Source: a virus (lineage: Duplodnaviria; Heunggongvirae; Uroviricota; Caudoviricetes). Taken from it: a stretch of DNA of 64,000 nucleotides. The DNA is taken from the IMG/VR virus record IMGVR_UViG_2721755646_000011, one strand, 5' to 3'. The notes under the pieces are model-generated. The model was not told where the DNA came from. It made no database searches and worked only from the letters and a program-made list of their open reading frames with translations. The translations under genes and the position numbers were made by a program. Below, one piece after another: positions 794 to 4,269 of the stretch. The stretch's first letter is position 1. Each line of letters begins with the position of its first letter.

Positions 794-1133
794 TAGCTAA
801 CCAACGAAGCTAAGGTTGGTAATTAAGTAGTTCTCCACGGGTGAGGTGGAGTGCGTGCGCCGGACGCGGGTGAGCATCCGGCACTGACAGTTTACTGAAA
901 GGATATTTCCCTGAAAAGTCAGACCATAACGCGAAAGCGCACGGCGAGGTAGCTGGTTCATAGATAGCCTGTCGTTAAATTTTCGTCGACCGTGCGCTTC
1001 CGGTTGTGGCAACCCGCGAAATGGTGCGGCGGTAAGTATGGCGGGGTTATTTCTTCCCCGTTGAGGACACCGGGTTGTCAGGTTGACCATACGCTTAAGT
1101 GACAACCCCGCTGCAACGCCTTCTGTTATCAAT

Positions 1134-1191
1134 TTTCTGGTGACGTTTGGCGGTATCAGTTTTACTCCGTGACTGCTCTGCCGCCCTTTTT
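1134..1191 (+). ncRNA. dicF: DicF small regulatory RNA (antisense regulator of ftsZ and other mRNAs)
   Basis: Sequence TTTCTGGTGACGTTTGGCGGTATCAGTTTTACTCCGTGACTGCTCTGCCGCCCTTTTT matches my recollection of E. coli DicF, ends in a GC hairpin plus T-run, and lies between ydfC and dicB. Confidence 0.7.
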
Positions 1192-1824: not shown

Positions 1825-4269
1825 ATGAGCACTGATAAAGAAGAAATTGCACTGTATTACGAAGCCAAAAATGACAAAGTCAGAAAACGCCTTGGGATTA
1901 AAGGCGGTTTTTACTGGCGCACAGCAAAAAAATTATCGGTTGCAATATCACGGGGTGTTGTCGCAATGGACGATGCTGGATTTGACGAAGAGGATTTCAA
2001 AAAACCTGTTCGCGTGAATTTGCCCATTGTTAATGACCTGCCGCCTGAAGGTGTGTTCGATACTGAATTCTGCAACCGCTATGAAAAAGGCGGGGAAGAT
2101 GGCATCACAATGATATTTATAGCGCCTTCCCCCTCAGTTCAGGACAAACCAGCCAGCTCTGACAATACCAACGTCAATGGCGAAGACATGGCTGAGATTG
2201 AGGATAATATGCTCCTGCCGATTTCCGGTCAGGAACTGCCCATTCGCTGGCTTGCGCAACATGGCAGCGAAAAACCGGTAACGCACGTTTCACGGGAAGA
2301 ACTTCAGGCATTACATATCGCACGAGCTGAAGAACTGCCTGCTGTTACTGCCCTGGCTATTTCCCACAACACAAAGCTGCTCGACCCGCTGGAGATTCGC
2401 GACCTTCACAAACTGGTACGCGACACAGACAAAGTTTTCCCTAATCCCGTTAATTCCAGTCTGGGGTTAATGACTGCTTTTTTCGAAGCATACCTGGACG
2501 CTGACTATACCGATCGAGGTCTGCTGACAAAAGAGTGGATGAAAGGAAATCGTGTTTTACGCATCAGCCGCACGCCATCCGGCGCTAATGCTGGCGGAGG
2601 AATTCTTACCGATCGCGGTGAAGGTTTTGTCCACGATGATGCGTCAGTAGAACGTGACGTTGCCGCTGGCGTTCTGGCCCGTTCAATGGACATCGATATT
2701 TACAATCCACATCCGGCACACGCCAAACGCATTGAAGAAATCGTTTCAGAGAATAAGCCGCCCTTTTCTGTTTTTCGTGACAAATTCATCGCCATGCCTG
2801 GTCACCTGGATTATTCCCGCGCGATAGTGGTTGCGTCCGTGAAAGAAGCACCAATTGGTATCGAGGCTACTCCCCACCGTGTTACCGAATATCTGAACAA
2901 AGTACTGACCGAAACCGACCATGCCAACCCTGATCCAGAAATCGTGGATATTGCCTGCGGTCGCTCCTCTGCTCCAATGCCGCAGCGTGTAACAAAAGAA
3001 GGAAAACAGGATGATGAAGAAAAACCGCAGCCATCTGGCGCAATGGCAGATGAACAGGCAACGACTGAAGCAGTGGAACCGGATACAACTGAACATAATC
3101 AGGACACGCAGTCGATGGATGCTCAGCCACAGATAAATTCTGTTGATGCGAAATATCAGAAACTGCGGGCAGAACTCCATGAAGCCCGGAAAAACATTCC
3201 GCCCCAAAATCCTGTCGATGCAGACAAATTACTGGCTGCCTCTCGCGGAGAATTTGTTGAAGGGATTAGCGACCCGAATGATCCGAAATGGATTAAGGGG
3301 ATCCAGACCCGCGATTCTGTGTACCAGAATCAGCCAGAAACGGAACAGAACGACCAGAAAGCGGAACAGAACAGCCCAAATACGCAACAAAACGAGCCAG
3401 AAACGAAACAACCTGAACCAGTAGTGCAACAGGAACCGGAAAAGATCTGCACCGCCTGCGGTCAGAGGAGTGGCGGCAACTGCCCTGATTGTGGCGCGGT
3501 GATGGGCGACGCAACATACCAGGAAACATTCGATGACAAGAACCTGGTTGAAGTTCAGGAAGACGATTCGGAGAAAATGGAAGGCGCTGAACATCCACAC
3601 AAGGAGAATGCTGGCAGCGCTCAGGACCACGCCAGCGATAGTGAAACTGGCGAGACGGCAGATCCCTTAATTACGGTGAACGGTCATCGCATTATCACAT
3701 CCACCAGCAGGACGTGTGACCATCTAATGATCGACCTTGAAACCATGGGAAAAAATCCTGATGCCCCGATTATCTCAATAGGTGCAATATTTTTCGATCC
3801 GCAAACCGGAGATATGGGACCGGAATTTAGTAAGACTATCGATCTGGAAACTGCTGGCGGAGTCATTGATCGGGACACCATTAAATGGTGGCTTAAGCAA
3901 TCACGCGAAGCGCAATCTGCCATTATGACCGATGAAATCCCGTTAGATGATGCACTGTTACAATTGCGGGAATTTATCGACGAAAACTCCGGTGAATTTT
4001 TTGTTCAGGTCTGGGGAAATGGAGCCAACTTCGACAACACGATTTTGCGCCGTTCATACGAACGGCAGGGGATCCCCTGCCCGTGGCGTTACTACAACGA
4101 TCGCGATGTACGCACAATCGTTGAGCTGGGGAAAGCCATAGACTTCGATGCCAGAACTGCTATCCCATTCGAAGGTGAGCGCCACAATGCGCTGGATGAC
4201 GCTCGTTACCAGGCAAAATACGTTTCAGCTATCTGGCAAAAACTGATCCCGAATCAGGCTGATTTTTAA
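1825..4269 (+). CDS. large prophage early protein with C-terminal DnaQ-like (DEDDh) 3'-5' exonuclease domain
   Basis: 814-aa ORF; C-terminal roughly 190 aa carry the DLETMG ... GNGANFD ... HNALDDA exonuclease motifs; sits where Qin has the ydfE fragment, upstream of xis-int. Confidence 0.6.

Follow-up and report, generated by a model that had tools for sequence, protein, structure and literature searches.

Near one end of a 64,000-nt stretch of DNA (the window; virus record IMGVR_UViG_2721755646_000011), the early-left operon of a lambdoid prophage carries dicF. The DicF RNA is among the oldest known bacterial small RNAs and affects cell division, metabolism and the virulence of enterohaemorrhagic Escherichia coli. 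The window sequence is 100% identical to an E. coli O157:H7 chromosome. On its plus strand, a promoter-like site in the early-left promoter region (155-183) lies upstream of ydfA (260-412), followed by ydfB (417-542) and ydfC (575-793). Between the ydfC stop codon and DicF, the map of open reading frames (ORFs) leaves a gap of 341 nt, the untranslated leader considered here (794-1134). DicF itself (1135-1186), with its intrinsic terminator hairpin and U tract, is recognized by Rfam model RF00039 at 76.7 bits (gathering score 48) and is followed by dicB (1359-1547, Pfam DicB), a DUF1482 gene and a large exonuclease gene. A second prophage with the same gene order occupies the other end of the window, with ydfC at 59682-59900, a DicF variant at 60876-60925 and dicB at 61100-61288, all on the plus strand. 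The variant has the same 5' seed and another hairpin, and its Rfam DicF score of 43.5 bits is below the gathering score of 48. The two leaders, 794-1134 and 60552-60875, lie inside the early-left (dicBF) operons of two Qin/Tritos-like lambdoid prophages, and in both of them a 115-nt piece directly preceding DicF (1003-1117 in the first copy) very probably folds as one compact four-helix domain.

The dicBF operon has been described as containing a long untranslated region that carries dicF on a polycistronic RNA (PMC5069750), and RNase E produces the DicF 5' end out of this transcript (Faubladier 1990, cited in PMC5069750). The 3' end is formed either by Rho-independent termination (53 nt) or by an RNase III cut of the full-length mRNA (72 nt) (PMC5069750). 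Because RNase III processes the full-length mRNA, some read-through of the DicF terminator is known, and the published processing implies that the leader is known to be transcribed as part of the DicF precursor. An earlier reading of the window, referred to below as the original prediction, had suggested a precursor role; this is correct, but that paper already contains the idea (PMC5069750). The present leader and the published DicF precursor of the dicBF operon are one and the same RNA, out of which RNase E frees DicF. In the part of the literature that was consulted, the leader is presented as a plain untranslated stretch, and no fold, conserved domain or spread beyond dicF was found described for it; a fold and a wide distribution are added here. 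The precursor role is thus known, whereas the 115-nt pseudoknotted domain appears to be undescribed.

The leader at 794-1134 is almost certainly the noncoding leader of DicF: it is an RNA and contains no minus-strand gene. Minus-strand ORFs are present at 797-1132 (111 aa) and 60535-60909 (124 aa), and the original prediction had dismissed them on the ground that they differ mostly by nonsynonymous changes. That argument fails, as the 13 substitutions between the copies comprise seven synonymous and six nonsynonymous changes in this frame, a ratio that alone would lean toward coding. The noncoding conclusion is nevertheless right for other reasons. The reading frame, whose conservation at the protein level had been named as evidence that would count against a noncoding leader, is cut from 130 to 93 codons by a 1-base indel in 17 of the 37 copies that are at least 95% identical, and the open frames of more distant copies range from 60 to 131 codons with no consistency. 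The region of hairpin H2 (described below) varies between 62 and 68 nt in steps that are not multiples of three. The ORFs match no Pfam family and no PHROG family, whereas every real neighbour (42-135 aa, including the 42-aa YdfB) has a PHROG match. The Prokaryotic Genome Annotation Pipeline leaves the leader unannotated in most genomes, with no annotation in the K-12 RefSeq records, although some O157 and phage records carry a 'hypothetical protein' label there. Taken together, a real minus-strand protein gene is extremely unlikely. The original description of the region as highly structured was borne out, in that the plus strand of 794-1190 folds at -151.9 kcal/mol (z = -3.98; 0 of 100 shuffles as stable), compared with z = -2.89 for the minus strand. 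Moreover, G-U pairs are frequent in the domain, so its fold is possible only in the plus-strand RNA.

Comparison of the two leaders is informative about their history. Alignment of 814-1134 with 60552-60875 gives 308 identical bases out of 321 (96.0%), with 13 substitutions and no internal indels. The near-identity originally reported for 797-1133 and 60545-60874 therefore holds, except at the left edge in copy 2, where 60545 is wrong because a 631-bp insertion (59921-60551) precedes the shared sequence, which resumes at 60552. Bases 794-813 of copy 1 correspond to 59901-59920 of copy 2, ahead of the insertion. The insertion, found in copy 2 only, splits hairpin H0 (UAACCAAC...GGUUGGUAA; 798-822, plus strand), which in copy 1 stands right after the ydfC stop codon and whose loop is the site of insertion. 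It contains two ORFs of unknown function, one on the plus strand (59923-60330, phrog_1363) and one on the minus strand (60308-60541, phrog_10348), and this arrangement of two ORFs within the loop of the post-ydfC hairpin was also seen in several viral contigs. The similarity of the leaders is not special: identity between the copies is 95.9% for ydfC and 95.8% for the dicF-dicB spacer, with lower values for the DicF hairpin (75.9%) and dicB (65.6%). Because the identity of the leader matches that of ydfC, the two copies cannot show selection on the spacer. A sharp mosaic border is observed at the dicB start, where dicB copies that are 65.6% alike in DNA adjoin noncoding flanks of DicF that are ~96% alike. 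The pattern of identity between the copies reflects phage mosaicism.

The evidence for a selected structure comes instead from more distant relatives of positions 1003-1117 (plus strand; 'module B'), the most widely shared piece of the leader. A model of this domain was built manually by reading its variants and was then followed by a covariance model, R1, which matches the window sequence at 137.5 bits (E = 2e-39). In this model, the closing stem P1 (1003-1009 with 1111-1117) encloses hairpin H1 (1014-1018 with 1025-1029), stem P2 (1030-1033 with 1069-1072), which is topped by hairpin H2 (1042-1046 with 1056-1060), and hairpin H3 (1073-1082 with 1094-1107), which includes a UAAG bulge. The hairpin quoted in the original prediction, GGTTGTCAGG...GACAACC, was located at 1073-1107 and 60814-60848. 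The domain of copy 2 (60744-60858, plus strand) scores 135.3 bits with model R1 and has one C-A mismatch in H1 (60766-60770, CGCAG). When 31 sequences sharing less than 96.5% identity were aligned with MAFFT, 17 of the 37 base pairs were seen to change on both sides, compared with 5.6 +/- 1.7 after shuffling, and 93.8% of the cells are paired, compared with 32-56% when partners are slid. An alignment to model R1 (n = 56), which favours the model by construction, gives 18 of 37 pairs changing on both sides (7.1 +/- 1.7 shuffled) and 95.5% paired cells (33-55% with slid partners); the MAFFT alignment agrees with it. The covariance analysis over many prophage copies that had been proposed as a check is thus in favour of the additional RNA element suggested at the outset, but for the 3' third of the leader, 1003-1117, and not for 814-1002, for which no specific fold is claimed.

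Individual helices illustrate how thoroughly their sequences have turned over. At least seven different stem sequences are found for H2, such as GGGG/CCCC, UGGG/CCCA, CAGGUG/CACCUG, UGGUG/CACCA, AGGUGG/CCACCU and CGGGC/GUCCG, and at least six for H3, such as GUUGUCA/UGACAAC, GUUGCCA/UGGCAAC, GUAACCA/UGGUUAC, GCUACCA/UGGUAGC and AUCACCA/UGGUGAU. In stem P2, phage P7 has a compensatory change from U-A to C-G. The loops of the domain are more conserved than its stems, and the unpaired H3 loop and bulge are near-invariant across lambdoid and P1-type phages. The minimum free energy (MFE) fold of the single window sequence yields stem P1, H1, P2, H2 and H3. An RNAalifold consensus of 67 sequences gave another structure with zero covarying pairs, and was set aside for the manual model, which the MFE fold also reproduces.

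A pseudoknot between the internal loop of P2/H2 (1036-1041, GUAUGG) and the loop of H3 (1087-1092, CCAUAC) is likely, although not proven. The search patterns fixed five of its six pairs. At the free pair, most sequences have U-A, phage P1 has C-G, and phage F1055 and locus L035 have U-G, the F1055 pseudoknot being a G-U intermediate form. Phage P7, which was found by BLAST and hence with no pattern constraint, has GUAUGG/CCAUAC, whereas its sister phage P1 has GCAUGG/CCAUGC. Scans for changes at two middle positions of the 5' strand returned three variants among 2.9 million viral contigs and one among 241 million metagenome records. No compensated variants were found in these scans; all four are singletons with an unchanged partner strand, and one of them (A to G) still permits a G-U pair. 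Such near-invariance indicates very strong constraint on the 5' strand.

Upstream of the domain, BLAST searches of phage genomes and ~120 viral contigs show the leader to be a chain of exchangeable RNA modules with recurring breakpoints at 814/826, 836, 854, 914, 1003 and 1014. Hairpin Ha (GCCGGA...UCCGGC; 859-882) is present in alignment A4 and in the MFE fold; its stem never varies and hence gives no covariation evidence for or against it. Hairpin Hb (CUGAC...GUCAG; 884-922, alignment A4) encloses a boxB-like hairpin, which is CCCUGA-AAAG-UCAGGG in most phages and lies at 905-922 and 60646-60663; copy 2 has the compensated stem CUCUGA/UCAGAG, and copy 1 has a C-A mismatch. The long stem Hc (AAGCGCACGG / CCGUGCGCUU; 935-999) encloses a variable insert and abuts the domain. 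Paired changes in Hc are seen in alignment A4 (GCGUACGG/CCGUACGC and GUGCACGG/CCGUGCAC), and the cdtI, F1055 and L033 lineages have GAGAGCAC/GUGCUCUC in its place. All of these elements are on the plus strand, and their counterparts in copy 2 (Ha, Hb and Hc; 60552-60743) are 96.3% identical to 814-1002. Compensatory pairs in 814-1002 are few and confined to Hb and Hc, the stems being mostly invariant; these modules are best described as hairpins with sparse covariation. On the 3' side of the domain, an A/U-rich single-stranded linker (GCCUUCUGUUAUCAAUU; 1118-1134, plus strand) ends at the DicF 5' end, which corresponds to the published RNase E cut (PMC5069750). A further hairpin, ACCACCUCGCCUGACGUGGU (59628-59650), recurs at module junctions of many phages (L009, L012, L018, L053 and L087, upstream of the 914 breakpoint). 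It is often preceded by a repeated GTTGTTGGGGA motif, and a related CCUCCCCUGACGGCGUGGUAG is found 3' of the domain in loci L255 and L262.

The domain is widespread. Among 5,426 complete E. coli genomes, 4,090 contain a match to the whole spacer, in Qin-like prophages. The domain is also present in phage cdtI, Stx2c phages, Ayreon, 2H10, Salmonella phage F1055, a phage deposited as an Actinobacillus phage, phages P1 and P7, and several hundred P1-like plasmids of Escherichia, Salmonella, Klebsiella and Shigella. Within the window, model R1 detects exactly two copies, and the complete genome of the intact phage Tritos yields one. A loose-pattern scan of genome contigs gave real matches only in E. 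albertii and E. ruysiae, with nearly all others being chance; loci from Leclercia and Cardiobacterium were not real when judged with model R1. In every case the domain is in the sense orientation, in the leader of a repressor-controlled early operon. In Tritos, the order is CI, ydfA, ydfB, ydfC, leader, DicF, dicB, ydfD, exonuclease VIII, xis and int, with no N gene, and ~350 nt separate cI from the domain downstream of it in cdtI and an Stx2c phage, with no gene between. In phages P1 and P7, it lies in the leader of the ban operon, which is repressor-controlled and has the ban helicase as its final gene. In phage P1, the domain begins ~35 nt past the C1-controlled Pban promoter and is followed by a strong terminator hairpin (8-bp stem, UUCG loop, 6 U), ahead of the tRNA genes, tciABC and ban; on that strand, the 2.7 kb up to ban contain no other terminator-like site. 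According to annotation, no N gene lies between promoter and domain in Tritos, cdtI, an Stx2c phage, F1055, pPE4 or P1/P7, and tblastn with the N proteins of phiSTEC1589 and lambda (two N families only) gave no match in any domain-bearing locus. In phage phiSTEC1589, where an N gene is present, the upstream modules are retained together with a DicF-like RNA, but the domain is missing, and a small hairpin (GUUGUGAAUAACAAC) stands in its spot.

What follows the domain is less uniform. Of the 72 distinct sequences that follow the domain, 68 have a hairpin of the DicF type and a U tract within ~10-35 nt, and the small-RNA seed between domain and hairpin varies by lineage and begins right after the 3' strand of stem P1. 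Three loci (L255, L262 and L337) have no small RNA 3' of the domain, and in a fourth (L277) a ribosome-binding site and ATG follow directly; the occurrence of the domain without a downstream small RNA in four lineages indicates that it is not only a DicF accessory. The terminators also differ between lineages (DicF; GCCCAUC...GGGUGGGC in phage P1; those of F1055 and of cdtI), and none of them pairs with the domain in a conserved way.

The small RNA that comes after the domain has the properties of a cassette, as seen from L002 1619-1670, L248 ~4119-4175, L005 1700-1765, L348 2790-2850, L003 1609-1770 and the window (1135-1186): one type of terminator hairpin (UUUGGCGG...) is combined with varying 5' seeds, namely UUUCUGGUGA in DicF and AUUGCUGUGUGUAGUC, CCAUGUGUAGUCUUUGG or CAUGUUGAUUACC in others. 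The small RNA of cdtI and the Stx2c phage begins with GCCACUGCUUU, which equals the first 11 nt of the RybB seed. Alone among the variants, that of phiSTEC1589 nears the Rfam DicF model (35.6 bits). In phage vB_Apl-pPE4 (L003 1609-1770), deposited as an Actinobacillus phage although its early region resembles that of E. coli prophages, two DicF-like small RNAs stand in tandem through duplication. Phages of the cdtI type (L002 1665-1760, L004 and L248) have a long inverted repeat, ACAAAACAGAGAAGAGCA...UGUUCUUCUCUGUUUUGU, 3' of the small RNA, which could fold into a further large stem-loop within this leader.

Set against known RNA families, the domain stands apart from each of them. Over 560-1400, Rfam 15 finds nothing but DicF and a sub-threshold STnc100 match downstream of DicF, and the DicF model (RF00039, at least 48 bits) has no match within 794-1134; the domain adjoins DicF and is not part of it. 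In phage P1, a 'dicF-like region' is annotated as a misc_feature (NC_005856, 68791-68892). It overlaps H3 and the following terminator hairpin of the Pban leader, but it starts inside the domain and misses H1, P2, H2 and the 5' strand of the pseudoknot (68735-68790), and the small RNA of phage P1 does not match the Rfam DicF model. The Rfam tRNA model finds the two real tRNAs of the window and none in 560-1400 (E up to 10), so the loosely cloverleaf-like four-way junction is not taken as tRNA-like. A riboswitch or attenuator was also rejected: the lack of a shared pairing between terminators and domain argues against a riboswitch-type switch, a shared GGCGGUA is missing in phage P1 and F1055, and there is no Rfam riboswitch match. 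The RfaH ops element has a 12-nt non-template consensus, GGCGGTAGNNTG, in which T6 and G8 are essential. The domain sequence GGCGGTAAGTAT fits positions 1-7 only (GGCGGUA) and fails at 8, 11 and 12, and phage P7 has GGCGGCAAG, with a C at the essential T6 that is compensated as an RNA base pair. A lambda-type nut site, in which a boxB hairpin goes with a cognate N protein encoded just past the early promoter, was considered on account of the boxB-like hairpin upstream and was rejected: no N gene lies between repressor and leader, and the two N families tried gave no tblastn match. Finally, AAACAGAGAAG (downstream in cdtI) and CGUUGUGGUA (phage P1) resemble the hairpin ribozyme; this reading was rejected because AAACAGAGAAG forms one side of a long, perfect stem and no Rfam ribozyme matches.

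Two systems offer closer parallels. Bound to the beta-prime zinc-binding domain of RNA polymerase, the put RNAs make the enzyme less prone to pause and terminate. In HK022, putL and putR are protein-independent processive antiterminator RNAs in the early operon leaders of a phage without N (PMC9378689). Like put, the domain stands in the early-operon leader of N-less phages with terminators downstream, although an activity of the domain on RNA polymerase is hypothetical. The two differ in size and fold, put having ~70 nt and two stem-loops and the domain ~115 nt, four helices and a pseudoknot. Homology between them was rejected, as model R1 has no match in HK022 and a local likeness of GGGUUCAGGAUGAAC to GGGUUGUCAGGUUGACC is unsupported by the model. 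The HK022 put sites get no Rfam match, which indicates that Rfam has no put family. The second parallel is the eps-associated RNA (EAR) of Bacillus, reportedly described by Irnov and Winkler in 2010 as an intra-operon antiterminator RNA. Like the domain, EAR is a ~120 nt structured element with a pseudoknot, located between genes inside a long operon; it belongs to another host group and has another sequence, and nothing in Rfam beyond DicF and the weak STnc100 links 560-1400 to a known family.

From this context and by analogy with put and EAR, the domain is proposed to act in cis on the nascent early transcript. It would make transcription resist the intrinsic DicF-type terminator directly 3' of it and would guard transcription against Rho over ~560 nt of untranslated RNA. 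Downstream early genes of N-less phages would then stay expressed, these being dicB, the exonuclease gene, xis and int, and in phage P1 the tRNA genes and ban. Stem P1, where present, would leave the A/U-rich linker single-stranded, and RNase E would cut there to free the 5' end of the small RNA. That the terminators vary without a conserved alternative pairing fits a mechanism independent of terminator sequence. Cis-acting read-through or anti-polarity is the favoured function, although it is assigned here only tentatively. Taken as a whole, the combination of a noncoding leader, a specific fold and cis-acting read-through is considered the best explanation, with confidence somewhat short of even. 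It is possible, though less likely than not, that the 115-nt domain, acting as put does in HK022, represents another class of processive antiterminator RNA that needs no protein and has an unrelated structure, with which N-less Qin/Rac-type lambdoid phages and P1/P7 would take early transcription past the DicF-type terminator and further on.

Several observations weigh against cis-acting read-through by this fold. The thermodynamic z-scores of the domain alone are modest (-0.6 to -1.9); the value for the window sequence (-1.8) is unremarkable, so that the case for the fold rests on covariation and not on stability. Covariation of the pseudoknot is confined to its one free position, and stem P1 is absent in phages P1 and P7, L053 and pPE4. 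The HK022 put sites occur in both early operons, whereas the Tritos domain is a single copy in the left operon; no second copy was found in the Tritos early-right operon, nor elsewhere in the window beyond the two leaders. At E up to 10, neither of the HK022 loci (L006, L007) is matched by model R1, and no kinship is evident with put, the one phage antiterminator RNA that has been studied in depth. The absence of N is read from the annotation of six phages and from two N families only, and the DicF-type hairpin behind the domain in 68 of 72 contexts fits a role in maturation or stability equally well.

In that alternative, the domain would be a maturation or stability scaffold: the closing stem borders an A/U-rich stretch, RNase E entry there would give a defined 5'-monophosphate end, and the precursor would perhaps be protected. 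The position of the small-RNA seed right after stem P1 and the RNase E cut 17 nt past that stem are as expected of such a scaffold, as is the small hairpin that precedes the DicF-like RNA of phiSTEC1589, where the domain is missing. A plain stem would suffice for this purpose, however, and the near-invariant H3 loop, the bulge and the pseudoknot would be left unexplained; the closing stem is also missing from the four lineages named above, and the domain occurs without a small RNA in four others. A scaffold is judged nearly as likely as read-through, and elongation control and a small-RNA platform could coexist. It is improbable that the domain is instead a trans-acting RNA, excised and stable at ~115-130 nt, whose loops would bind a factor from host or phage, making the RNA a decoy, sponge or cofactor. 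Its self-contained fold with its own closing stem, its movement between phages as a unit, the greater conservation of loops than stems, and its presence in phages of unrelated types (lambdoid, P1/P7 and a third context in L255 and L262) would suit such a role, but no released RNA species is known, the domain has neither its own terminator nor a protective 3' hairpin, stem P1 is missing in some lineages, and the invariable sense orientation within an early operon leader is that expected of a cis element. A passive spacer, that is, GC-rich and hairpin-rich filler that keeps Rho off and serves as shared recombination sequence, would agree with lineage breakpoints at module borders, with the mostly invariant stems of 814-1002 and with an identity between copies equal to that of flanking genes, but it is quite unlikely because the 17-18 compensated pairs out of 37 and the near-absolute loop conservation in 1003-1117 show selection on a specific fold.

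Beyond the leader, the dicF-dicB spacers match the Rfam STnc100 model below its gathering score of 47 (1184-1391, 39.8 bits; 60914-61119, 32.5 bits), and a weak match is also present in phage P1 (L001 3842-3961). A full STnc100 is found at 48433-48641 on the minus strand, adjoining two tRNA genes and AgvB. The spacer 3' of DicF may be another conserved phage RNA element. Rfam also finds a sok antitoxin RNA (53610-53759, minus strand), AgvB, an anti-GcvB small RNA (48372-48431, plus strand), and the two tRNA genes (48754-48983, minus strand).

The domain bears on two linked problems, namely how the dicBF operon is read through past the DicF terminator and what the leader is for, and it is a promising candidate for a new RNA family, one whose function can be tested. 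In either reading, it merits an Rfam family of its own, and a recurring false 'hypothetical protein' would be removed from annotations. It also provides a concrete target for mutation that is common to thousands of E. coli prophages and to phages P1 and P7, and that is paired with varied small-RNA seeds. If the domain directs maturation, this would explain how the seeds of small RNAs are swapped behind a fixed processing platform. Should it control elongation instead, it would be a new RNA class beside put and EAR, which are essentially the whole present list, and as an antiterminator it would be a transcription-control device present in about three quarters of sequenced E. coli genomes.

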